A DNA stretch of 11,684 bases from a virus, in the UHGV virus genome UHGV-1583584. One strand, 5' to 3'. The stretch's first letter is position 1, and every line of letters begins with the position of its first letter. The translations under genes were made by a program, and so were the position numbers. Below the pieces are notes generated by a model that was not told where the DNA came from, did not search any database, and saw only the letters and a list, made by a program, of their open reading frames with translations. This document shows positions 1 through 11,684 of this stretch, piece after piece.

Positions 1-148
1 CAAAGAACCTTGCAGAGGCGTTCGAGCATTATAACGAATGGCATCCGCATAGTGCACTGGGTTATCGCTCGCCACGGGAATATCTACGGCAGCAAGCCAG
101 TAATGGGTTAAGTGATAACAGGTGTCTGGAAATATAGGGGCAAATCCA
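1..148 (+). mobile_element. IS2 insertion sequence, right end (partial; element continues left of the window)
   Basis: The + strand frame starting at base 3 encodes a transposase C-terminus, and the sequence up to about 148 ends in GGGGCAAATCCA, which I recall as the IS2 terminal sequence. Immediately after, the minus-strand integrase reading frame loses lambda Int similarity. Confidence 0.75.
3..137 (+). CDS. insD: IS3-family (IS2) transposase OrfB/InsD, C-terminal 44 codons (5-prime end outside window)
   Basis: Translation of 3..134 gives [44 protein letters not shown], stop TAG at 135-137. This matches my memory of the IS2 InsD C-terminus ([15 protein letters not shown]...[11 protein letters not shown]). 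Confidence 0.75.
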
Positions 149-890
149 CATGCAATGCTGTTGGGATGGCAATTTTTACGCCTGTTTTGCTTTGCTCGAC
201 ATAAAGATATCCATCTACGATATCAGACCACTTCATTTCGCATAAATCACCAACTCGTTGCCCGGTAACAACAGCCAGTTCCATTGCAAGTCTGAGCCAA
301 CATGGTGATGATTCTGCTGCTTGATAAATTTTCAGGTATTCGTCAGCCGTAAGTCTTGATCTCCTTACCTCTGATTTTGCTGCGCGAGTGGCAGCGACAG
401 GGTTTGTTGTTATATGGCCTTCAGCTATTGCCTCTCGGAATGCATCGCTCAGTGTTGATCTGATTAACTTGGCTGACGCCGCCTTGCCCTCGTCTATGTA
501 TCCATTGAGCATTGCCGCAATTTCTTTTGTGGTGATGTCTTCAAGTGGAGCATCAGGCAGACCCCTCCTTATTGCTTTAATTTTGCTCATGTAATTTATG
601 AGTGTCTTCTGCTTGATTCCTCTGCTGGCCAGGATTTTTTCGTAGCGATCAAGCCATGAATGTAACGTAACGGAATTATCACTGTTGATTCTCGCTGTCA
701 GAGGCTTGTGTTTGTGTCCTGAAAATAACTCAATGTTGGCCTGTATAGCTTCAGTGATTGCGATTCGCCTGTCTCGGCCTAATCCAAACTCTTTACCCGT
801 CCTTGGGTCCCTGTAGCAGTAATATCCATTGTTTCTTATATAAAGGTTAGGGGGTAAATCCCGGCGCTCATGACTTCGCCTTCTTCCCAT
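149..890 (-). pseudogene. int: Lambda-type tyrosine integrase Int, truncated after about residue 247 by the IS2 insertion
   Basis: The first 247 residues of the 108..890 ORF (MGRRRSHERRDLPPNLYIRNNGYYCYRDPRTGKEFGLGRDRRIAITEAIQANIELFSGHKHK...KIAIPTALH) are nearly identical to lambda Int as I recall it. The C-terminal 13 residues ([13 protein letters not shown]) are read-through into IS2 sequence. The catalytic C-terminal region (His308, Arg311, His333, Tyr342 in lambda Int) is missing. Confidence 0.9.
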
Positions 891-1086
891 TTCTGATCCT
901 CTTCAAAAGGCTACCTGTTACTGGTCGATTTAAGTCAACCTTTACCGCTGATTCGTGGAACAGATATTCTCTTCCATCCTTAACCGGAGGAGGGAATATC
1001 CTGCATTCGCGCACCCATCGACGAATTGTTTCAAGGCTTCTTGGGCGTCGCTGGCGAGCGTTCCACTCCTGAAGTGTCAAGTACAT
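868..1086 (-). CDS. xis: Excisionase Xis (lambda-type)
   Basis: The 72-aa product MYLTLQEWNARQRRPRSLETIRRWVRECRIFPPPVKDGREYLFHESAVKVDLNRPVTGSLLKRIRNGKKAKS matches lambda Xis as recalled. Its 3-prime end overlaps the int start (890), as in lambda. Confidence 0.95.
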   Translation of the reverse strand: MYLTLQEWNARQRRPRSLETIRRWVRECRIFPPPVKDGREYLFHESAVKVDLNRPVTGSLLKRIRNGKKAKS

Positions 1087-1111
1087 CGCAAAGTCTCCGC
1101 AATTACACGCA

Positions 1112-1133
1112 AGAAAAAACCGCCATCAGGCGG
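1112..1133 (-). terminator. Rho-independent terminator (minus-strand orientation), immediately upstream of xis
   Basis: Stem CCGCC (1120-1124), loop ATCA, stem GGCGG (1129-1133), preceded on the + strand by AAAAAA (1114-1119). On the minus strand the hairpin is followed by TTTTTTCTT. Confidence 0.5.
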
Positions 1134-1308
1134 CTTGGTGTTCTTTCAGTTCTTCAATTCGAATATTGGTTACGTCTGCATGTGCTATCTGCGCCCACAG
1201 CATCCAGTGGTTATAGCAGTCGCTGATGTTCTCGGCTTCGATAACTCTGTTGAATGGTTCTCCATTCCATTCACCTGTAACTCGGAAGTGCATTTATCAT
1301 CGCCATAA

Positions 1309-1362
1309 AACAAAACTCGCCGTAGCGAGTTCAGATAAAAGAAAACCCGCACTCGGCGGGTT
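1309..1362 (-). terminator. Tandem GC-stem hairpins each followed by a U-run on the minus strand (candidate intrinsic terminators)
   Basis: AACTCGC-cgta-GCGAGTT (about 1313-1330) and AACCCGC-actcg-GCGGGTT (1344-1362), each preceded by an A-rich run on the + strand, so each is followed by a T-run when read on the minus strand. Confidence 0.4.
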
Positions 1363-1641
1363 CGCATTCGTTCAAATTGCGTTTACTTCTTGGCGTTCTG
1401 TTCATCCATATCGATATACCATGGGTTGCTTCCCTTGGGCATGTTTAACGACTGCTCGCGATAGTATCTGATGCGCTCCATGAAATACTCGCGTGAGTGC
1501 TCAGGTTGCTCTCATGATACCTGCTCAGTGATAACAGGTATGTTAAGGCGCTCTCTGTACTCCATGCCTGATGCTGCAAGGTCAACGTTTACCTTGTTCT
1601 GTTTTTCTTTCGATTTCTCGGCGATGTTATGCCTGACATTG

Positions 1642-1926
1642 TCAACCCGCCTCCTTCTGAACATAACGGTTATAAATCAGTCCCTGAGGGCCATAAGGAA
1701 GCGGGATGTGCAACTCCTCTGGTTCAGAAACTATCCATTCCCCGGCCATCTCCGCTGGAGAGGTAATGATAAGTTGTTTGCTAATAAAAGGACCACTCCT
1801 CTCAACAACAAGCTTACCATCTTCATTAATAAAAGCTTGGATGTCAGGTGTGCTTCCACACTTGGTGATGCAGCGTTTGAACATTTTGTGTCCCCCCATT
1901 TTATGGACGGGGTAATTATAACACAT
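1642..1926 (-). CDS. Hypothetical small protein (accessory ea region). Probable true start is the internal Met at 1884 (about 80 aa), which is preceded by GGGGGA.
   Basis: Minus-strand ORF of 94 codons with no competing long ORF on the same strand. It is not lambda Ea8.5, whose sequence as I recall it starts MSINELESEQKDW. No SD precedes the first ATG; an SD-like GGGGGA lies 6 nt before the third Met (MFKRCITKCGSTPD...). Confidence 0.5.
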   Translation of the reverse strand: MCYNYPVHKMGGHKMFKRCITKCGSTPDIQAFINEDGKLVVERSGPFISKQLIITSPAEMAGEWIVSEPEELHIPLPYGPQGLIYNRYVQKEAG

Positions 1927-2010
1927 TGAAATATAGTAATATTTGACGTAGATTTCTTTTGATCTATAAGCGATTTTTTAATGCTTTTAAGTTATAAATA
2001 CTTGTTTTCA

Positions 2011-2586
2011 TCACCCATCTTGCTGCGGTGCTACTATTGAAAAGTACTCACACCCTTTAGCCCAAATAGTTTTGATAGTTGTCCAACTGACTGGAACCTT
2101 GATTTCGATTCTTCCGCTGCCGTCACAAGTTTCGCAATCATCATCACCAAAGCATTCCGGGCAGCTTATAAACGTAGTTTCTGAAAATTCACCGGATAGC
2201 ACACCCTTAGCGCCGTTCTCAGCGGTTAGTTTCTTCGGCACTATAACCCAACCATCCGGAGTTACCGGAGAATTGCCATTTATATCGAAGTTTGGCTCTG
2301 CGTCCTGAACCAGGAGGATGTAACCATTCTTGGCAGTATCAAGTTCTAACGCCTCGGTGACGGTACCGAAATAGCGATTACCTAAATCCGCATCACAAGT
2401 GCTTACATCAATGGAAACCTCCATGCCTTCGATTAATTCTGGCAAGTTGTAAGTTTGGCTTACAGGTTCTGCTCCCAGTGATGCCAGTGCAATTCGTGCC
2501 AGTTCCATTTGTTCGCCACGAGTAAGCCCGTTTTCAAGCGGATTTTTAATGAACAATTCAATACGTTCTTTGGTAATAGTGGTCAT
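2011..2586 (-). CDS. Hypothetical 191-aa protein with a C-terminal cysteine cluster (CPEC-x5-CETCDGSG, a DnaJ-like CxxCxGxG zinc-ribbon motif)
   Basis: ORF with SD AAGGA 5 nt upstream of the ATG at 2586. It lies 10 nt downstream of the stop of the preceding gene (2597), consistent with an operon. The Cys motif is read directly from the translation. Confidence 0.7.
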   Translation of the reverse strand: MTTITKERIELFIKNPLENGLTRGEQMELARIALASLGAEPVSQTYNLPELIEGMEVSIDVSTCDADLGNRYFGTVTEALELDTAKNGYILLVQDAEPNFDINGNSPVTPDGWVIVPKKLTAENGAKGVLSGEFSETTFISCPECFGDDDCETCDGSGRIEIKVPVSWTTIKTIWAKGCEYFSIVAPQQDG

Positions 2587-2596
2587 TTGTTAGTCC

Positions 2597-3352
2597 TTAA
2601 ACTGCTAGTTGCAATTGCATTTCAAAGCGGTCGCGTTGTTCACAATACGCAAGAGAACCAGGGCTATTGTGTGCCTCAATCCGTTCTACCATTAATGCTG
2701 CGCGTGTCTCTTTACTTGCAGGTGCATAAGCCCCAGACCAGGCTTTATCAATACCGATGTTTCGAGCGACGTTCGTACTATCTGCGCTGGCTAAGGGTAA
2801 TTTTGTGAATATCAGCGGATTTAACATGCGCAATCCATGTAGTTTCGTAACCAGCTGACCATGCCCATCAACAATGTGACGAATCAGGTCTTTCATTCTG
2901 GCTACCGCAAGAGTTGGGCGCTTTACGTCATAGTCGCCACAACTACCGATAGCCACTCGCGGAAACTCATTGCACAAATGAATAAATCGCTCGTCACTTT
3001 CATTCATGTGCCACACTGGAACGCCAGCTAGTTTTCCGTGAGGCCACTCATTCAGAAGCGCATCATTTTCCTCCTCTCCGCCATCAATAACATCCGGGAT
3101 AATGGCAAAATCGAATCTTGGGTGATTCTTCCAGCGAGCAACAAACTCGTAGTAATCGCTCCAGTCGATTTTGTTTTTGCCAGCTGCTTTCCAGGCGGTG
3201 AATGCACCGTTGTCCAGCGCGAACGACTGACAGTATTCAGCCGCGAGATTGATCTGGCCTGAATGCGCAAAACTGATAAACGCATGTCGCCCTTTCCATG
3301 CTCTCATTGCGCACGTATCAGGAGTAATAGGCCCACCGTGGTAGTGAATCAT
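2597..3352 (-). CDS. Putative TGT-fold (tRNA-guanine transglycosylase-like) protein, candidate DNA 7-deazaguanine transglycosylase (DpdA-like). Function is tentative.
   Basis: The six-frame ORF is 2597..3394, but the strong SD AAGGAG sits 7 nt upstream of the Met at 3352 (MIHYHGGPITPDT...), one nucleotide after the Ea22-like stop. A co-linear motif pattern resembles TGT family landmarks as I recall them from E. coli Tgt: ALDNGAF vs LTDSGGF, IIPDV vs MIFDE, VAIGSCG vs AVGGLAVG, KLHGLR vs YLMGVG, ADSTNVARN vs FDCVMPTRNARN. There is no CxCxxC...H zinc subdomain. Similarity is motif-level and not verified by search. Confidence 0.6.
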   Translation of the reverse strand: MIHYHGGPITPDTCAMRAWKGRHAFISFAHSGQINLAAEYCQSFALDNGAFTAWKAAGKNKIDWSDYYEFVARWKNHPRFDFAIIPDVIDGGEEENDALLNEWPHGKLAGVPVWHMNESDERFIHLCNEFPRVAIGSCGDYDVKRPTLAVARMKDLIRHIVDGHGQLVTKLHGLRMLNPLIFTKLPLASADSTNVARNIGIDKAWSGAYAPASKETRAALMVERIEAHNSPGSLAYCEQRDRFEMQLQLAV

Positions 3353-3353
3353 C

Positions 3354-3761
3354 TCACTCTCCTTTGATGCGAATGCCAGTAGCGCGGATTGCATCGATGA
3401 CTTCAGAAACTTTGTATGCCATTACCGTTTGGTAATCATCGTGAAAATCTGTTCGATGAAGCATGCTGCTACGTTCCGGGAGCAGTATTTCCCGCGCTTC
3501 CAGTTCTGCAATGCGCTTTTTTGCTGCTTCCAGTTCATCCAGTAATTCCAGCACGGTAGCCGGATTAGCCTTGGCAACAAAATCCCGGACTGGCTTACAA
3601 TCAATCTCCGCAATGGGTTGATACGATGTGTAGCCATGCTGTCTTGTATAACTACCGTGACGAATAACGAAAAAATCACCATTTATTTTTTTAGCCTGCC
3701 ACTTATCTTCACCGGCTTTCTCTGCCGCTTCACGCAGTGCCTGAGAGTTAATTTCGCTCAC
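3354..3761 (-). CDS. ea22: Ea22-like protein (mosaic: lambda-like N- and C-termini, different central region)
   Basis: The N-terminus MSEINSQALREAAE and C-terminus GIRIKGE match lambda Ea22 as recalled. The central part differs and the protein is shorter (135 aa vs 182 aa in lambda). Confidence 0.8.
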   Translation of the reverse strand: MSEINSQALREAAEKAGEDKWQAKKINGDFFVIRHGSYTRQHGYTSYQPIAEIDCKPVRDFVAKANPATVLELLDELEAAKKRIAELEAREILLPERSSMLHRTDFHDDYQTVMAYKVSEVIDAIRATGIRIKGE

Positions 3762-3979
3762 GTCGAACCTCTCTGTTTACTGATAAGCTCCAGATCTTGC
3801 TGGCAACTGGCACAAGTCCGACAACCCTGAACGGCCAGTCGTCTTCGTTCATCTATCGGATCGCCACACTCACAACAATGAGTGGCAGATATAGCCTGGT
3901 GGTTCAGGCGGCGCATTTTTATTGCTGTGTTGCGCTGTAATTCTTCAATTTCTGATGCTGAATCAATTATGTCTGCCAT
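3758..3979 (-). CDS. TraR/DksA-family C4 zinc-finger protein (lambda orf73-like)
   Basis: The 73-aa product has CCECGDPIDERRR...CRTCASCQ, a four-cysteine TraR/DksA-type zinc finger. The surrounding DNA matches lambda in this region as recalled. Its stop overlaps the Ea22-like start in an ATGA arrangement. Confidence 0.8.
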   Translation of the reverse strand: MADIIDSASEIEELQRNTAIKMRRLNHQAISATHCCECGDPIDERRRLAVQGCRTCASCQQDLELISKQRGST

Positions 3980-4030
3980 CTTTCATTAATCCCTGAATTG
4001 TTGGTTAATACGCTTGAGGGTGAATGCGAA

Positions 4031-4055
4031 TAATAAAAAAGGAGCCTGTAGCTCC
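4031..4055 (-). terminator. Rho-independent terminator-like hairpin (minus-strand orientation)
   Basis: GGAGC (4041-4045), loop CTGTA, GCTCC (4051-4055), preceded on the + strand by AAAAAA. On the minus strand the stem is followed by TTTTTTATTATT. It lies just downstream of the minus-strand gene ending at 4078. Confidence 0.45.
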
Positions 4056-4077
4056 CTGATGATTTTGCTTTTCATGT

Positions 4078-4293
4078 TCACCGTTCCTTAAAGACGCCGT
4101 TCAACATGCCGATCGCCAGGCTTAAATGAGTCGGTGTGAATCCCATCAGCGTTACCGTTTCGCGGTGCTTCTTTAGTACGCTACGGCAAATGTCATCGAC
4201 GTTTTTATCCGGAAACTGCTGTCTGGCTTTTTTGATTTCAGAATTAGCCTGACGGGCAATGCTGCGAAGGGCGTTTTCTTGCTGAGGTGTCAT
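4078..4293 (-). CDS. Small lambda-type early-region protein (orf61/orf63-cluster homolog), start assigned to the Met of MTPQQENALRSIARQ
   Basis: The six-frame ORF runs 4078..4359, but the ATG at 4293 overlaps the stop of the upstream small ORF (ATGA). The region is conserved with lambda as recalled. Confidence 0.65.
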   Translation of the reverse strand: MTPQQENALRSIARQANSEIKKARQQFPDKNVDDICRSVLKKHRETVTLMGFTPTHLSLAIGMLNGVFKER

Positions 4294-4373
4294 TGAACAA
4301 GCCCCATGTCGGCAAGCATAAGCACACAGAATATGAAGCCCGCTGCCAGAAAAATGCATTCAGTGGTTGTCAT
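4290..4373 (-). CDS. Candidate 27-aa hydrophobic micropeptide (MTTTECIFLAAGFIFCVLMLADMGLVQ)
   Basis: Short ORF whose ATG overlaps the stop of the upstream gene (ATGA at 4370-4373) and whose stop overlaps the ATG of the downstream gene (ATGA at 4290-4293). The product is a single hydrophobic helix-like segment. It is below the size threshold of the ORF track. Confidence 0.3.
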   Translation of the reverse strand: MTTTECIFLAAGFIFCVLMLADMGLVQ

Positions 4374-4561
4374 ACCTGGTCTCTCTCATCTGCTTCTGCT
4401 TTCGCCACCATCATTTCCAGCTTTTGTGAAAGGGATGCGGCTAACGTATGAAATTCTTCGTCTGTTTCTACTGATATTGGCACAAACCTGACTCCAATTT
4501 GAGCGAGGCTATGTGCCATCTCGATACTCGTTCTTAACTCAACGGGAGATGCTTTGTGCAT
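4370..4561 (-). CDS. Small lambda early-region protein (orf63-like)
   Basis: 63-aa ORF in the conserved position between exo-proximal orf60a and orf61. Assignment is by position and by recalled lambda DNA similarity in this segment. Confidence 0.65.
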   Translation of the reverse strand: MHKASPVELRTSIEMAHSLAQIGVRFVPISVETDEEFHTLAASLSQKLEMMVAKAEADERDQV

Positions 4562-4722
4562 ACAGCTCCCCGTTTATTATTTATCTCCTCAGCCAGCCGC
4601 TGTGCTTTCAGGGGATTTCTGATAACAGAAAGGCCGGGAAATACCCAGCCTCGCTTTGTAATGGAGTAGACGAAAGTGATCGCGCCCACCCGGATATTAT
4701 CGTGAGGATGCGTCATCGCCAT
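4534..4722 (-). CDS. Small lambda early-region protein (orf60a-like), immediately downstream-adjacent to exo
   Basis: 62-aa ORF overlapping the exo stop region, in the same arrangement as lambda orf60a. Confidence 0.65.
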
Positions 4723-5393
4723 TGCTCCCCAAATACAAAACCAATTTCAGCCAGTGCCTCGTCCATTTTTTCGATGAACTCCGGCACCATCTCGTCAAAA
4801 CTCGCCATGTACTTTTCATCCCGCTCAACCACGACATAATGCAGGCCTTCACGCTTCATACGCGGGTCATAGTTGGCAAAGTACCAGGCATCTTTTCGCG
4901 TCACCCACATGCTGTACTGCACCTGGGCCATGTAAGCCGACTTTATGGCCTCGAAACCACCGAGCCGGAACTTCATGAAATCCCGGGAGGTAAACGGGCA
5001 TTTCAGCTCAAGGCCATTGCCGTCACTGCATAAACCATCGGGAGAGCAGGCGGTACGCATACTTTCGTCGCGATAGATGATCGGGGATTCAGTAACATTC
5101 ACGCCGGAAGTGAATTCAAACAGAGTTCTGGCGTCGTTCTCGTACTGTTTTCCCCATGCCAGCGCCTTAGCATTAACTTCCGGAGCCACACCGGTGCAAA
5201 CCTCAGCCAGCAGGGTGTGGAAGTAGGACATTTTCATGTCAGGCCACTTTTTTCCGGAGCGGGGTTTTGCTATCACATTGTGAACTTCTGAAGCGGTGAT
5301 GACGCCGAGCCGTAATTTGTGCCACGCATCATCCCCCTGTTCGACAGCTCTCACGTCGATTCCGGTACGCTGCAGGATAATGTCCGGTGTCAT
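4713..5393 (-). CDS. exo: Lambda exonuclease (Red alpha), 5-prime to 3-prime dsDNA exonuclease
   Basis: The 226-aa product [40 protein letters not shown]... is essentially identical to lambda Exo as recalled. Confidence 0.97.
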
Positions 5394-6175
5394 GCAGCCA
5401 CCTTCTGCTCAGTGGCTTTCTGTTTCAGGAATCCAAGAGCTTTCACTGCTTCGGCCTGTGTCAGTTCTGACGATGCGCGAATGTCGCGGCGAAATATCTG
5501 GGAACAGAGCGGCAATAAGTCGTCATCCCATGTTTTATCCAGGGCAATCAGCAGAGTGTTAATCTCCTGCATGGTTTCATCGTTAACCGGAGTGATGTCG
5601 CGTTCCGGCTGACGTTCTGCAGTGTATGCGGTATTTTCGACAATGCGCTCGGCTTCATCCTTGTCATAGATACCCGCAAATCCGAAGGCCAGACGGGCAC
5701 ACTGAATCATGGCTTTATGCCGTAACATCCGTTTGGGATGCGACTGCCACGGCCCCGTAATTTCTCTGCCTTCGCGGGTTTTGAATGGTTCGCGGCGGCA
5801 TTCATCCATCCACTCGGTAACGCAGATCGGATGATTACGGTCCTTGCGGTAAATCCGGCATGTACAGGATTCATTGTCCTGCTCAAAGTCCATGCCATCA
5901 AACTGCTGGTTTTCATTGATGATGCGGGACCAGCCATCAACGCCCACCACCGGAACGATGCCATTCTGCTTATCAGGAAAGGTGTAAATTTCTTTCGTCC
6001 ACGGATTAAGGCCGTACTGGTTGGCAACGATCAGTAATGCGATGAACTGCGCATCGCTGGCATCACCTTTAAATGCCGTCTGGCGAAGAGTGGTGATCAG
6101 TTCCTGTGGGTCGACAGAATCCATGCCGACACGTTCAGCCAGCTTCCCAGCCAGCGTTGCGAGTGCTGTACTCAT
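5390..6175 (-). CDS. bet: Bet (Red beta) single-strand annealing protein
   Basis: The 261-aa product [48 protein letters not shown]... matches lambda Bet as recalled. Its start overlaps the exo stop region. Confidence 0.97.
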
Positions 6176-6180
6176 CCGTT

Positions 6181-6477
6181 TTATACCTCTGAATCAATAT
6201 CAACCTGGTGGTGAGCAATGGTTTCAACCATGTACCGGATGTGTTCTGCCATGCGCTCCTGAAACTCAACATCGTCATCAAACGCACGGGTAATGGCTTT
6301 TTTGCTGGCCCCGTGGCGTTGCAAATGATCGATGCATAGCGATTCAAACAGGTGCTGGGGCAGGCCTTTTTCCATGTCGTCTGCCAGTTCTGCCTCTTTC
6401 TCTTCACGGGCGATCTGCTGGTAGTGACGCGCCCAGCTCTGAGCCTCAAGACGATCCTGAATGTAATAAGCGTTCAT
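6181..6477 (-). CDS. gam: Gam, RecBCD inhibitor (98-aa short form)
   Basis: [60 protein letters not shown]... matches lambda GamS as recalled. Upstream DNA resembles lambda but the reading frame for the 138-aa long form is not open here. Confidence 0.95.
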
Positions 6478-6552
6478 GGCTGAACTCCTGAAAATGGCTG
6501 TGAAAATATCGCCCGCGAAATGCCAGGCTGATTAGGAAAACAGGAAAGGGGA

Positions 6553-6759
6553 TTAGCGATTCAGGCCGTTACCGCGTCCGTCGAGAAAAACTTCCACGAG
6601 CAAATCACGGGTATAAGTGCGCTCGATGCCGCGATGCAGATAAAGCCGTCCGCGTAAATTAGCTGATGCAGTCCAGGTACCATCTTTGTGTTTGACCAGC
6701 ATTCCTGGCATGACCGCACCTCGATTAACGGTCTGCGTTCCGTAATGTTGATGAACCAT
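6553..6759 (-). CDS. Hypothetical protein, first gene downstream of the candidate pL, in the position of lambda kil/N but unrelated in sequence. The start is uncertain.
   Basis: The six-frame ORF extends to 6963 with a TTG start and no SD. Internal ATGs with good SDs are at 6759 (AGGAG 5 nt upstream, product [14 protein letters not shown]..., 68 aa) and at 6711 (GAGGT upstream). The C-terminus ...[18 protein letters not shown] is not lambda Kil (recalled as MDQTLMAIQTKF...). Confidence 0.45.
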
Positions 6760-7036
6760 AAAAACTCCTGCCCGTAAGCTGGGCTGCTGAACATATAGAG
6801 ACTTCTGCGCGTATTCAGGCGGTGGATGGCCGCCGGTTGTCATAACTAAGTCGCCTCGTTGAAGCGACTGAGGTATGAAGTGTTGAGTTGATTTCAGCTG
6901 GTCACACCGACGTTCACGCGTCCGCTTCACCCCTCGCACTCCCCGAAGCCTGCTGAAATTCAAACTGCGGATCTAAGCGGTCATCGCAACGGTGAAACAG
7001 GTGGTTACCGTATCGTTGTGTCGTTGCGATGAATTT

Positions 7037-7110
7037 ATTTAAAACTGTAGTTGTTTTATCGTCAACAACAAAAGTTGTTTTGTCGGTTGTTTTAAATATA
7101 ACTGGTTGTA
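7037..7110 (-). promoter_or_regulatory. Candidate pL promoter with oL operators
   Basis: On the minus strand: -35 TTGACG (+ coords 7060-7065), 17-nt spacer, -10 TTAAAT (7037-7042). The spacer contains the 17-mer AAAACAACTACAGTTTT (7041-7057), 15 of 17 identical to AAAACAACCATAGTTTT in the pR spacer (8595-8611). Further GTTGTT/AACAAC repeats lie at 7064-7080 and 7085-7110. Confidence 0.5.
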
Positions 7111-7205
7111 TTTAGGATGGATTTATTTTGTGACTTGCATCGCATAGCGATAACTGAAGTGAGGTGTGGTGGTTTTTTGGACGGTATGAGTTATGAGGGG
7201 GAGGA

Positions 7206-7236
7206 AAAGAAAACCCGGCGCGGTTGCCGGGTATGA
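7206..7236 (-). terminator. Rho-independent terminator after the lipoprotein gene
   Basis: Minus strand immediately after the stop at 7240: CCCGGC-aaccgc-GCCGGG followed by TTTTCTTTTCC. Confidence 0.6.
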
Positions 7237-7239
7237 TTA

Positions 7240-7620
7240 TCAGTCAGCCCAACCTGATTTCGAGTTTATTTGGGTTTCTGACATTGTGTATTTCTTAATC
7301 GTGTCATCGTTAAAAAGAATAGTAAGTTCTTTTTTCGTACCGTTCGTTCCATTATGGAATAATCCATAGAATGGAATAAAAGTGGTGCCATTAACTTTTA
7401 CTTTTGCAAAGGCGTACTTCCAGATCTCGTTTCCACTGTCAGTATATGAAACAGCATCAGGAGAACCAAAGTAAGATTTAACCTCATTCTTGGTTGTTTT
7501 ACCTTCCTGAAGTTTAGACTGGACACTAATTTCAGTTTCATTTTTGAGTTGCTGGTTGCCTGAAGAAGCACACCCAGCCAATACAGATGCCATCATGGCA
7601 GCGATTAGGATTTTTCTCAT
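7240..7620 (-). CDS. Prophage-encoded lipoprotein (signal peptide with lipobox LAGC); possible BamE/SmpA-OmlA-like fold; candidate lysogenic-conversion or superinfection-exclusion factor
   Basis: The N-terminus MRKILIAAMMASVLAGC has a canonical lipobox, with Ala at +2 after the Cys (no Asp inner-membrane retention signal). The mature part has a pattern resembling BamE (GxTKxEV...GSP...WxY...LTILFxxDxIKxY), which is a motif-level impression only. The gene is AT-rich relative to its neighbours and is followed by a terminator. Confidence 0.8.
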   Translation of the reverse strand: MRKILIAAMMASVLAGCASSGNQQLKNETEISVQSKLQEGKTTKNEVKSYFGSPDAVSYTDSGNEIWKYAFAKVKVNGTTFIPFYGLFHNGTNGTKKELTILFNDDTIKKYTMSETQINSKSGWAD

Positions 7621-7849
7621 TTTATGTTTCCATTCATTATAATCAGAAACATCTTAACATAATGATTCGAAATAAAAACCGCTACGAGATAGGGGGACAT
7701 TTTGCTGACAGTAGCAACAAATCTCAGCTAACAACGAGAATATTTACTGAAATATGCAAACAGATTTGGCGTTCTTATAGAGAATTTAGTGCAATATCTA
7801 ATCCGAGTGGTATAAACCTTAACCTTCGCTCCCTTAAGTCGTAGATAAA

Positions 7850-8539
7850 TTAACCATGCTTCCTGTACGTCTGCGGCATGCTTCCAATGACCTTACCGAA
7901 TATGAACACCCGGTTCATCTCGTCTTTCTCGATCGGGTCCCACGGCGAGTAGCTCTTGTTATCAGAGATAACCAGCAGCTTATCCTTCATCATTTGAAGA
8001 CGTTTTACATGGGCAGTGTCGTCGTACAGAAACGCATAGATGCCATCACCGTCGAAAGATTTAACAGTGATATCAACGAACAGCAGGTCACCTGGTTCGA
8101 TCGTCCCTGACATGCTGTCACCTCGCACGTTAATGATGCGGATATTTTCCGCCTTCCTGCCATCGAACATGTGACGAGCATCGTCAAACGAGTACTCAAC
8201 CGAGCGTAGAACTTCTACAAACTCACGGTTGATTACACCTGGCCCGGCACTGACTTCTATATCAAGAACGTCAATTTTGAAGTATTTGGAATGGCTGACA
8301 GTTGATTGTATTGGTTGCACTGTACTGTCTGACATATTTCCAACGCCAGAAGATAACCATTCTGCGCGCACACCCAAAGCGTTCGCGATCTCCACGATTT
8401 TAGTTGTTTGGTTAGCTTTCCCTGTTTCGATTTTCTGAATAGCAGCCTGGCTAACCCCGACCAAATCCCCAAGCGCCTTTTGTGTAAGGCCTCGCGCTAA
8501 TCTGGCTTCTTTAAGTCTTTCTGAGAGTGTTGTTTTCAT
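7850..8539 (-). CDS. cI: CI-type prophage repressor (N-terminal XRE-family HTH, C-terminal LexA/S24-like autopeptidase domain)
   Basis: The N-terminus LKEARLARGLTQKALGDLVGVSQAAIQKIETGK is a typical HTH. The C-terminus contains GDSM (Ser nucleophile motif) and VKRL (Lys), with a candidate Ala-Gly cleavage site in EVSAGPG. It is transcribed divergently from the cro-like gene. The sequence differs from lambda CI, so this is a different immunity type. Confidence 0.9.
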   Translation of the reverse strand: MKTTLSERLKEARLARGLTQKALGDLVGVSQAAIQKIETGKANQTTKIVEIANALGVRAEWLSSGVGNMSDSTVQPIQSTVSHSKYFKIDVLDIEVSAGPGVINREFVEVLRSVEYSFDDARHMFDGRKAENIRIINVRGDSMSGTIEPGDLLFVDITVKSFDGDGIYAFLYDDTAHVKRLQMMKDKLLVISDNKSYSPWDPIEKDEMNRVFIFGKVIGSMPQTYRKHG

Positions 8540-8545
8540 AGATCA

Positions 8546-8616
8546 AATGTACAACCAAGGTTTTATTTCATCAAACGAAAATGGTTGTTGACTAAAAACA
8601 ACCATAGTTTTAATCT
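8546..8616 (+). promoter_or_regulatory. oR operator cluster with pR (and divergent pRM presumably within the same region)
   Basis: pR: -35 TTGACT (8588-8593), 17-nt spacer, -10 TAATCT (8611-8616), then SD GGAGG (8634-8638) and the cro-like ATG at 8644. Three related 17-bp dyad-type sites: about 8548-8564 (ACAACCAAGGTTTT), 8576-8592 (AAAATGGTTGTTGAC) and 8595-8611 (AAAACAACCATAGTTTT). Confidence 0.6.
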
Positions 8617-8643
8617 TGATTCGGATTAACCACGGAGGTTGTT

Positions 8644-8874
8644 ATGAACCCAGCAATCAAAACAGCGATCAATATCGTTGGTTCACAAAAGAAACTAGGC
8701 GATGCCTGCGAAGTTTCACAGCAGGCCGTCTATAAGTGGCTTCACAACAAAGCAAAGGTATCCCCTGAACATGTCGGCAGCATTGTTACGGCTACTGGTG
8801 GAGTTGTGAAGGCATACCAGATTCGCCCGGATCTTCCGAAGTTGTTTCCACACACCGAAAAGAACGCAGCTTAA
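8644..8874 (+). CDS. Cro-like HTH regulator of the YdaS type
   Basis: The 76-aa product, first rightward gene from pR, contains GSQKKLGDACEVSQQAVYKW...VSPEHVGSIVTATGGVV, resembling the YdaS/Cro-like family pattern as I recall it. It is not lambda Cro. Confidence 0.75.
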   Translation: MNPAIKTAINIVGSQKKLGDACEVSQQAVYKWLHNKAKVSPEHVGSIVTATGGVVKAYQIRPDLPKLFPHTEKNAA

Positions 8875-8943
8875 ATTTCCATTTCACGCTCTTTAACAAT
8901 AAGCAATCAACTTAACAGTCAATTCAAACTAAAGGAGTCAATT

Positions 8944-9483
8944 ATGCAACCACTTACATACCAACAGACTAGCGGATTTATTCCGACTGCGGTGATAAAT
9001 CGTTCTCAAACAAAACAAGCTCCAGGCCACGAAAAAATCCGTGATGCCGTCCGCGCCTGGTCGGCTGTAGATAATCAGGATGTCGTTGCCGCACTCATTG
9101 TGAATGAGTATCGGGAGCAGGGCGACGGCACCATCGATTTCCCTGATGATGTCAGCCGTGCACGCCAGAAGCTGTTCCGCTTCCTCGATAACAAATTCGA
9201 TTCTGAAAAATACCGAAATAACGTGCGTGAACTGACCCCGGCAATTCTGGCGGTACTACCGCTGGAATATCGCGGTTACCTGGTTGAGCAGGATAGCTTC
9301 ATGACTCGGTTGGCTGAAATGGAAAAGGAACTCAGTGAGGCAAAACAGGCTGTCATTCTCAACGCACCACGCCACCAGAAACTGAAGGAAATGAGTGAAG
9401 GTATTGTGTCGATGTTTCGTGTGGACCCGGATCTGGCTGGTCCATTAATGGCGATGGTGACCACCATGCTGGGGGCAATATGA
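8944..9483 (+). CDS. YdaT-like protein in the cII position (function uncertain: regulator or toxin-like)
   Basis: 179-aa ORF with SD AAGGAG 5 nt upstream. The segment LTPAILAVLPLEYRGYLVEQD resembles the YdaT family core as recalled from the Rac prophage ydaS-ydaT pair. It is not lambda CII (97 aa). Confidence 0.6.
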   Translation: MQPLTYQQTSGFIPTAVINRSQTKQAPGHEKIRDAVRAWSAVDNQDVVAALIVNEYREQGDGTIDFPDDVSRARQKLFRFLDNKFDSEKYRNNVRELTPAILAVLPLEYRGYLVEQDSFMTRLAEMEKELSEAKQAVILNAPRHQKLKEMSEGIVSMFRVDPDLAGPLMAMVTTMLGAI

Positions 9484-9569
9484 CAGGTTCAGAAATGGCG
9501 AAAGTCGGTCTGCGGGAACAGAACCGACTTTCAGGTGCAAATCGTAACACACTCATTGCGGGAGGAATT

Positions 9570-10499
9570 ATGGCAAACACTGCTGAGATATTCAATTTTC
9601 CAGTGCCGGATGCGGCACAAAAGGAGCCGCGCGTGGCAGATCTCGATGATGGTTATACGCGCATTGCAAATGAGTTGCTGGAAGCTGTGATGCTGGCCGG
9701 ATTAACACAGCACCAGCTTCTGGTCTTCCTGGCTGTCATGCGCAAAACATATGGCTTTAATAAAAAACTGGATTGGGTGAGCAACGAGCAACTTTCCGAG
9801 TTGACCGGGATATTGCCGCACAAGTGTTCTGCTGCAAAAAGCGTTCTGGTAAAGCGTGGGATTCTTATTCAGAGCGGGCGGAATATCGGCATTAATAATG
9901 TGGTCAGTGAATGGTCAACATTACCCGAATCAGGTAAGAAAAATAAAGTTTACCTGAAAGAGGTAAATTTACCTGAATCAGGTAAGAAAAGTTTACCCAA
10001 ATCAGGTAAAGGCGTTTACCCGAATCAGGTAAACACAAAAGACAAACTAACAAAAGACAATATAAAACCTTTTTCGTCCGAGAATTCTGGCGAATCCTCT
10101 GACCAACCAGAAAACGATCTTCCTGTGGAGAAACCAGATGCTGCAATTCAGAGCGGCAGCAGGTGGGGGACAGCAGAAGACCTGACCGCCGCAGAGTGGA
10201 TGTTTGACATGGTGAAGACCATCGCGCCATCAGCCAGAAAACCGAATTTTGCAGGGTGGGCTAACGATATCCGCCTGATGCGTGAACGTGACGGACGTAA
10301 CCACCGCGACATGTGCGTGCTGTTCCGCTGGGCATGCCAGGACAACTTCTGGTCCGGTAACGTGCTAAGTCCGGCCAAACTCCGCGACAAGTGGACCCAA
10401 CTCGAAATCAACCGTAACAAGCAACAGGCTGGCGTGACAGCCGGAAAATCAAAACTCGACCTGACAAACACTGACTGGATTTATGGGGTGGATTTATGA
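9570..10499 (+). CDS. O: Replication initiator O (hybrid: non-lambda N-terminal iteron-binding domain, lambda-type C-terminal P-interaction domain)
   Basis: Start assigned to the ATG at 9570 (MANTAEIFNFPVP...), preceded by GGAGG at 9561-9565, rather than the ORF-track start at 9480 that overlaps the upstream gene. The C-terminal part, about 130 aa (...WGTAEDLTAAEWMFDMVKTIAPSARKPNFAGWANDIRLMRERDGRNHRDMCVLFRWACQDNFWSGNVLSPAKLRDKWTQLEINRNKQQ...DWIYGVDL), matches lambda O as recalled. The N-terminal domain differs. Confidence 0.9.
   Translation: MANTAEIFNFPVPDAAQKEPRVADLDDGYTRIANELLEAVMLAGLTQHQLLVFLAVMRKTYGFNKKLDWVSNEQLSELTGILPHKCSAAKSVLVKRGILIQSGRNIGINNVVSEWSTLPESGKKNKVYLKEVNLPESGKKSLPKSGKGVYPNQVNTKDKLTKDNIKPFSSENSGESSDQPENDLPVEKPDAAIQSGSRWGTAEDLTAAEWMFDMVKTIAPSARKPNFAGWANDIRLMRERDGRNHRDMCVLFRWACQDNFWSGNVLSPAKLRDKWTQLEINRNKQQAGVTAGKSKLDLTNTDWIYGVDL
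9921..10032. repeat. Origin of replication iterons: five 17-bp inverted-repeat iterons, consensus TTACCCGAATCAGGTAA, inside the O gene
   Basis: Copies at 9921-9937, 9950-9966, 9969-9985, 9993-10009 and 10016-10032 (TTACCyGAAwsAGGTAA), immediately followed by an A-rich segment (10033-10080). This is the architecture of lambdoid ori. The repeats encode the repeated LPESGKK-like peptide in O. Confidence 0.8.
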
Positions 10500-11197
10500 A
10501 AAACATCGCCGCACAGATGGTTAACTTTGACCGTGAGCAGATGCGCCGGATCGCCAACAACATGCCGGAACAGTACGACGAAAAGCCGCAGGTACAGCAG
10601 GTAGCGCGGATCATCAACGGTGTGTTCAGCCAGTTACTGGCAACTTTCCCGGCGAGCCTGGCTAACCGGGACCAGAACGAACTGAACGAAATCCGCCGCC
10701 AGTGGGTTCTGGCTTTCCGGGAAAACGGGATCACCACAATGGAACAGGTTAACGCAGGAATGCGCGTAGCCCGTCGGCAGAATCGACCATTCCTGCCATC
10801 ACCCGGGCAGTTTGTCGCCTGGTGCCGGGAAGAAGCATCCGTTACCGCCGGACTGCCAAACGCCAGCGAGCTGGTTGATATGGTTTACGAGTATTGCCGG
10901 AAGCGTGGCCTGTATCCGGACGCAGAGTCTTATCCATGGAAATCAAACGCGCACTACTGGTTGGTTACCAACCTGTACCAGAACATGCGGGCCAATGCGC
11001 TGACTGACGCGGAATTACGGCGTAAAGCTGCCGATGAGCTGACCTGTATGACCGCGCGAATTAACCGTGGTGAGGCGATACCTGAACCAGTAAAACAACT
11101 TCCTGTCATGGGCGGTAGGCCTCTAAATCGTGCACAGGCTCTGGCGAAGATCGCAGAAATCAAAGCGAAGTTCGGACTGAAAGGAGCAACTGTATGA
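10496..11197 (+). CDS. P: Replication protein P (DnaB helicase loader)
   Basis: The 233-aa product MKNIAAQMVNFDREQMRRIANNMPEQYDEKPQVQQVARIINGVFSQLL... matches lambda P as recalled. Its start overlaps the O stop (ATGA). Confidence 0.95.
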   Translation: MKNIAAQMVNFDREQMRRIANNMPEQYDEKPQVQQVARIINGVFSQLLATFPASLANRDQNELNEIRRQWVLAFRENGITTMEQVNAGMRVARRQNRPFLPSPGQFVAWCREEASVTAGLPNASELVDMVYEYCRKRGLYPDAESYPWKSNAHYWLVTNLYQNMRANALTDAELRRKAADELTCMTARINRGEAIPEPVKQLPVMGGRPLNRAQALAKIAEIKAKFGLKGATV

Positions 11198-11367
11198 CGG
11201 GCAAAGAGGCAATTATTCATTATCTGGAGACGCACAAGAGCTTCTGTGCGCCGGACGTTGCTGCGACAACAGGTGTGACATTAACCAGCATAAATCAGGC
11301 TGCGGCAAAAATGGCGCGGGCAGGAATCCTGGTCATTGATGGTAAGGTCTGGCGAACGTTTGTTTAA
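11194..11367 (+). CDS. ren: Ren-like protein, short (57 aa) relative to lambda Ren (96 aa)
   Basis: Manual translation from the ATG at 11194 (overlapping the P stop): MTGKEAIIHYLETHKSFCAPDVAATTGVTLTSINQAAAKMARAGILVIDGKVWRTFV, stop TAA at 11365-11367. The N-terminal 50+ residues resemble lambda Ren as recalled; sequence diverges after about residue 54. Confidence 0.7.
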   Translation: MTGKEAIIHYLETHKSFCAPDVAATTGVTLTSINQAAAKMARAGILVIDGKVWRTFV

Positions 11368-11513
11368 CGGTTAGCTACTCAGGATGATAGGGCGGGGCAA
11401 GTGAGTATGAAGCGGATTTTCAGGAATGCCATCAGAGTTTGGAAATAAAGTGGGTTTTCTAGTGGCAAGAGACTTGATAATATTTAGTTCTTTAAATCCA
11501 AGGAGATAGGGTT

Positions 11514-11669
11514 ATGAGAAAATTTATTATAGCCTTTGTCATAAGTGCCTCGTTTACTGCAAATGCTGGTGTAGAGAAGTTAGGGTCGTGGATAACAAAG
11601 TCTGAGATAAATAAAATGACTGACCAGACTGAACCGCCCCGGGTTTCCTGGAGAGTGTTTTATCTGTGA
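11514..11669 (+). CDS. Candidate small secreted protein (51 aa) with an N-terminal signal-peptide-like segment
   Basis: ATG at 11514 preceded by AGGAGA (11501-11506). Product MRKFIIAFVISASFTANAGVEKLGSWITKSEINKMTDQTEPPRVSWRVFYL, stop TGA at 11667-11669. AT-rich context. Could be a genuine small gene or a remnant. Confidence 0.25.
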   Translation: MRKFIIAFVISASFTANAGVEKLGSWITKSEINKMTDQTEPPRVSWRVFYL

Positions 11670-11684
11670 ACTCAGGCTGCCAGA

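Follow-up and report, generated by a model that had tools for sequence, protein, structure and literature searches.

The left end of the viral genome UHGV-1583584 raises the question of whether a prophage with a lambda-type integrase gene (int) that runs into an insertion sequence can still leave the chromosome by its own means. A first-pass annotation of the window, as we call the whole stretch of 11,684 nt analysed here, had read the start of the sequence as an IS2 element truncating int, and had proposed that the prophage is probably locked in place. The answer that we consider likely, taken as a whole, is that IS2 has inserted into int, that the product is non-catalytic, that the prophage is grounded and that the allele is clonal. 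The coordinates used throughout are collected in Table 1.

Table 1. Features of the window and other disrupted copies of the same int gene
Feature	Position	Strand	Record	Basis or remark
Right (3') end of IS2 variant (IS3 family)	1..148	+	window	Gap-free alignment to annotated IS2, strain 582
Last 44 codons of IS2 transposase (OrfB/InsD) and stop codon (135-137)	3..137	+	window	Translation, Pfam rve_3
Chimeric Int::IS2 ORF, 260 aa	108..890	-	window	Int 1-247 plus 13 residues from the IS2 terminal repeat
Lambda-type int nucleotides 1-742 (codons 1-247 plus 1-2 nt)	149..890	-	window	Identical to strain 582 int
Predicted 5-bp target-site duplication CATGC, if simple insertion	149..153	.	window	Inference; int nt 738-742
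xis, 72 aa, full length	868..1086	-	window	Pfam Exc 1-72 of 77, E 5.9e-41
Second, different IS3-family terminal repeat	11633..11684	+	window	100% match to element ends in N10, DLI.6n and SW070919
IS911-like element in int	int nt 746-748		L020/L024	Both junctions (2732-2737, 3981-3986), 3-bp duplication
IS600-like element abutting int	int nt ~734		L016, ~3968-3972	int 5' part and xis deleted
IS3-family element in int	int nt ~664		strain SW070919
IS3-family element in int	about codon 20		strain PSS-16

The junction of int with IS2 and its recurrence

At its first base the window already lies within the IS2 element, whose terminal inverted repeat ends ...GGGGCAAATCCA at position 148. Positions 137-148 are letter for letter those that close the IS2 annotated in E. 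coli strain 582, and the tip of the element at 148 reads ...ATATAGGGGCAAATCCA, exactly as that annotated copy finishes. Over positions 1-148 the identity to the last 148 nt of the strain 582 IS2 is 95.3% with no gaps, and the same 148 nt recur with 100% identity in a variant copy of IS2 in strain DLI.6n. One related contig (L012) extends this element to 425 nt, with 98.1% identity to the strain 582 IS2, and the 425-nt stretch has matches of at least 99% in 282 E. coli complete-genome records. The open frame in the window fits positions 45-67 of the 67 in Pfam rve_3 (E 4.9e-08), that is, only the C-terminal tail of a DDE transposase, and in L012 the same transposase ORF is lengthened to 137 residues, with matches to both rve and rve_3. 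By these alignments the element is a common IS2 variant. The first-pass annotation had placed the transposase C-terminus at 3-137 and the end of the element near 148, and both placements agree with the strain 582 and DLI.6n copies; the sequence upstream of int is IS2, as it had supposed.

On the other side of the junction, an alignment with the uninterrupted int of strain 582 is identical from position 149 rightwards and unrelated leftwards, base 148 being ambiguous. The BLAST match to int begins at 144 because of a chance match of 4 of 5 bases at 144-148 (ATCCA versus ATCAA) between the IS2 tip and int, and a 5-nt homology overlap there was accordingly rejected as microhomology. The int frame continues across the junction as a chimeric ORF, the stop codon of which falls inside IS2.

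The window ends in repeats on both sides and is therefore probably a whole short-read contig. A contig of this kind could carry the junction as an assembly chimera, or as a minority variant misjoined at the repeat, in which case the real int would be intact; the resemblance of the window to a short-read contig with repeats at both ends would suit such an origin, as would the lack of the junction in complete RefSeq E. coli genomes (0 of 5,426). However, the exact 260-aa fusion ORF is recorded on 21-22 independent short-read contigs, and the fusion protein is also present in GenBank as GDA40007.1, titled "integrase [Escherichia coli]". Nine contigs were examined, each from a different ENA assembly; assemblers and k-mer sizes varied among these assemblies, several of which are labelled as human gut metagenome. 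All nine have the identical junction and end inside IS2, with IS2 overhangs of 54-425 nt and flanks that are 99.7-100% identical over up to 10.9 kb. The base-for-base recurrence across independent assemblies excludes the chimera for practical purposes, and we give it almost no chance. The same comparisons show the int::IS2 junction to be a single clonal allele that circulates within a lineage of gut E. coli.

Two sets of apparent further examples were discarded. Top matches in complete genomes that looked full-length proved to combine IS and int segments belonging to different insertions, and the partial Int proteins (219-260 aa) that share the 90% cluster come from normal int genes broken at contig ends and not from IS junctions.

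The truncated integrase and the probable loss of excision

The int DNA that is left codes for both DNA-binding domains, arm-binding and core-binding, and for the first ~70 residues of the catalytic domain, among them R212 and K235. Over residues 1-247 the protein matches an intact 356-aa relative, WP_000533642.1, at every position, and P164H is its single difference from phage lambda Int, which bears out the earlier statement that lambda Int identity is kept for about 247 residues. Residues 248-249 of the chimera (V, D) also agree with WP_000533642.1, by coincidence, as they are coded mostly by the IS2 end. In the truncated protein Pfam finds Arm-DNA-bind_1 at 1-69 (E 4.1e-33) and Phage_int_M with Phage_int_SAM_1 over 81-171, whereas the Phage_integrase profile is covered at positions 2-72 of 172 as against 2-168 in the intact relative; the match to the PDB lambda Int chains is confined to residues 1-250 of 356. 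The C-terminal 109 residues of Int (248-356) are gone, with the IS2-encoded residues in their place, and in the alignment H308, R311, H333 and Y342 are absent. The catalytic region is thus missing, as the first-pass annotation had claimed. The catalytic roles of R212, K235, H308, R311, H333 and Y342 in lambda Int are well established. The nucleophile is Tyr342, which lies in the C-terminal catalytic domain (PMC4880445). Judged by this alignment, int in the window is a pseudogene or fragment that codes for no functional tyrosine recombinase.

The same early account had described Xis as intact, and its 72 residues indeed fit the Pfam Exc profile at full length. The xis gene overlaps the start of int by 23 nt, as in lambda, and in the matching region of the relatives it is annotated as the excisionase WP_001303849.1. 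The lambda Int/Xis components in the window have 97-99% identity. Xis alone, however, has no recombinase activity. The truncated product would keep the arm-type and core-type DNA-binding domains and would lack strand cleavage and rejoining, so that the prophage could not excise through its own Int despite an intact Xis and would be inherited vertically as a grounded prophage. With the catalytic residues missing from Int, excision by its own functions would therefore be lost, and on established Int biochemistry we conclude that this prophage is very probably unable to leave the chromosome. The conclusion presumes that the genome has no other prophage providing a lambda-type Int in trans, since a second lambda-type int there could complement; complete genomes with this int carry it at a median of one place per genome, with a maximum of five. 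The prophage is presumably active otherwise.

Being unable to leave does not make such a prophage harmless. When a lysogen is int-defective and has an intact cleavable repressor, O and P, induction remains lethal to the cell through replication in place. In the window the repressor, O and P look intact on comparison with the relatives. As an int-defective prophage is not harmless on induction, its state should favour further inactivating mutations, and from established lambda genetics being 'locked in' would mark an early stage on the way to further decay, short of stable domestication.

The region around int and xis was also searched for other signals. A hybrid outward promoter at the junction of the IS2 end with int, antisense to int and xis, gave no sigma-70-like match in positions 1-1500, and antisense int/xis transcription from a junction promoter was dropped as a candidate for this reason. 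Upstream of xis, on the int/xis strand (-), there are terminator-like hairpins with T-runs at 1117-1136, 1313-1332 and 1343-1363, each sitting directly past a small ORF; positions 1-1500 hold five terminator-like sites versus 1.4 expected from shuffles.

Probable simple insertion, possible rearrangement and other disrupted alleles

The window and every related contig contain the right IS2 junction only. The IS2 variant would have transposed into the prophage int, landing between nucleotides 742 and 743 with its orientation opposed to that of the gene. We infer a simple insertion with a 5-bp duplication, in which case the second copy of CATGC would fall to the left of IS2, beyond the window; in strain 582, copies of the 5-bp duplication ATTTC stand on both sides of IS2. 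Around the insertion site the uninterrupted int has ...GAGAGCATCAACATGCAATGCTG... in the alignment. For the + strand of the window a simple insertion predicts a left junction in which ...TCCGAGAGCATCAACATGC is followed directly by TAGACTGGCCCC, the latter opening the left end of IS2; on the int strand this left end (TAGACTGGCCCC...) would meet GCATGTTGATGCTCTCGG, from int nt 738 onward. Farther left would come the int 3' end, attL and ybhC, and the int 3' end and attL have presumably been kept beyond IS2. The window itself contains neither the attL nor the attR site of this lineage.

Searches for this left junction were made in two ways. The int 3' part joined to the IS2 left end with 0-12 nt between them had 0 matches in IMG/VR and 0 in the JGI metagenomes; the right junction is likewise absent from both collections, and the zero is therefore uninformative. 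With the predicted 102-aa C-terminal Int ORF (P0001), the 24 longest-contig blocks of 419 gave other alleles, namely frameshifted ints and the IS911-like and IS600-like cases, and not the left junction.

Alternatively, the junction may have been left by an IS2-mediated rearrangement, such as a deletion next to the element, or an inversion or deletion arising when two IS2 copies recombine. This IS2 would then have lost contact with the int 3' end, with attL and perhaps with neighbouring DNA of the chromosome or the prophage. None of the 22 contigs shows the left side, and relatives have more IS2 in the same prophage (in the b-region of strain 582 and in the tail-fibre gene of N10), including the DLI.6n copy with its 100% identical end ~350 bp from int. 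Furthermore, the IS600-like element of L016 adjoins the int 3' part, from nt ~734 on, with the int 5' part and xis deleted. Nothing speaks directly against a rearrangement, but simple insertion is the commonest outcome and is documented 4-6 bp away in L020/L024, and the 11.5 kb of the window, IS ends apart, is colinear with the intact relatives. We consider a rearrangement rather unlikely, and its functional outcome would be equal or stronger, namely no excision, with int non-functional either way.

The lambda-type int is present in 2,057 of the 5,426 complete genomes, of which 2,011 have a copy matching at least 80% of the gene and 46 have no copy covering at least 80% of it in one alignment. 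Disruption of this int is uncommon (about 2%) but recurrent. The IS911-like element in L020/L024 is a simple insertion 4-6 bp off the IS2 site, and there the 3' end of int survives beside ybhC.

The junctions of the IS2 variant, the IS911-like element and the IS600-like element all lie within 15 bp of one another in int (nt 734-748). Those loci were retrieved through a 102-aa ORF from Met255, which reveals breaks only between about nt 660 and 760, and because of this restriction to a ~100-nt stretch the 15-bp clustering is weak evidence for a hot spot. That int nt 734-748 is a preferred target of IS3-family elements, and/or that Int(1-247) is kept as a dominant-negative against lambda-type phages, seems to us improbable.

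Retention of the truncated Int for a function of its own, either as a dominant-negative at arm and core sites or by sequestration of Xis or IHF, has to be weighed separately. A dominant-negative would block integration or excision by incoming lambda-type phages; the ORF is open over 260 codons, both DNA-binding domains are complete by Pfam and the allele is unchanged across many samples, all of which would fit such a role. However, recent clonal descent explains this persistence, since flanks that are 99.7-100% identical leave no time for decay. There is also no sign of selection and no independent recurrence of this truncation, no promoter-like site is made at the junction, and only the 46 int-carrying complete genomes already mentioned are without an int copy of at least 80%. 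A retained function is highly unlikely in our judgement, and we continue to regard the truncated int as a pseudogene or fragment of clonal descent.

A further IS2 copy near int was seen in DLI.6n (L026, ~4085-5415), the prophage of which is 99.9% identical to the window. This IS2 variant, with a 148-nt right end that is 100% identical, lies in a small gene next to xis, in the opposite orientation and ~350 bp from int, and its position suggests that IS2 is drawn repeatedly to the int-xis end in this prophage family.

The prophage and its comparison with known systems

Positions 144-11632 of the window align in one piece, with 99.9% identity, to the prophages of strains N10, M15 and MS 196-1, and the strain 582 prophage also aligns with the window, barring an extra IS2 there. 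In all four strains int is uninterrupted and adjoins ybhC. The N10 prophage is a lambda-like element of ~46 kb that occupies the lambda attachment site, with ybhC on one side and ybhB/bioA on the other; it carries a complete set of head and tail genes, an OmpC-like porin gene and iss, together with IS elements already in the tail-fibre gene and pseudogenised ren and holE-like genes. At the right end of the window the second IS3-family element, from 11633, cuts a TagO-like lipoprotein gene (start 11516) that is unbroken in the relatives. This element is of the same type as one with an 'AL1L pseudoknot' annotation in N10, DLI.6n and SW070919.

After gene P there is a ren-like ORF (11196-11367) of only 57 codons. 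In the closest relatives ren is annotated as frameshifted or with an internal stop, so that its decay would predate the IS2 insertion. Within 6550-8900, the interval that separates the leftward early genes from the S24-peptidase repressor (7850-8539, -) has no N-like antiterminator gene; its place is taken by a gene for a BamE-like lipoprotein (7240-7620, -), and the rightward genes are of the YdaS/YdaT type. The lack of an N-like gene together with the YdaS/YdaT genes suggests that the immunity region is not lambda-like, unlike int/xis and Red.

The disruption of a prophage int by an IS element is already known, as a textbook route to cryptic prophages, and no new mechanism is involved here; int disruption has been described as a route to 'grounded' prophages (PMC6379469), and int-disrupted lambdoid prophages are known from O157 Sakai (PMC2669165). 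The particular int::IS2 allele is, as far as we have seen, undescribed, though it is in GenBank as an unremarked 'integrase'. The deposition of the fusion protein (GDA40007.1, P0016) simply under that name deserves a flag, as the gene is disrupted. For annotation, this prophage lineage should be scored as excision-defective and its int as a pseudogene, contrary to the GDA40007.1 label. The phage-borne cargo, such as the Red genes and the lipoprotein genes, would then be passed on vertically only, except with the help of another prophage. Since many human gut metagenomes share this junction to the base, it is a handy clonal marker. Beyond annotation its importance is slight, as this is an ordinary case of prophage grounding.

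Among known systems, the inserted element resembles IS2 (IS3 family) of Escherichia coli in its terminal repeat ending TGGATTTGCCCC, in the C-terminus of its transposase and in its nucleotide identity, which is 95-98% to annotated IS2 and 100% to variant copies in other E. coli. It differs as a variant that has QQASNG where IS2 has QRACNG near the transposase C-terminus and that PGAP calls merely 'IS3 family transposase'; the window holds only its last 148 nt. The four other IS-disrupted int alleles also involve IS3-family elements in the same lambda-type int, but they are independent events, with other elements, orientations and positions, and their junctions are unlike that of the window. 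Compared with lambda Int (PDB 1Z1G, 5J0N), the window Int deviates over residues 1-247 at the single position P164H, whereas residues 248-356 are swapped for 13 IS2-encoded ones and H308, R311, H333 and Y342 are missing. The full-length Xis, the int/xis overlap and the gene order are those of lambda, but the remainder of the prophage, with its YdaS/YdaT-type immunity region and accessory genes, is not. In DE3 an engineered cassette interrupts int. DE3 in BL21(DE3) is like the window in that its int is interrupted, and it has a truncated lambda-type int in the genome survey (H128). Prophages Sp3, Sp11 and Sp12 of O157 Sakai are likewise lambdoid, with an interrupted int and with excision by their own functions expected to be impossible (PMC2669165). 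In DE3 and in the Sakai prophages the disrupting element and its position are others, whereas the window represents a natural IS2 variant after int nt 742.
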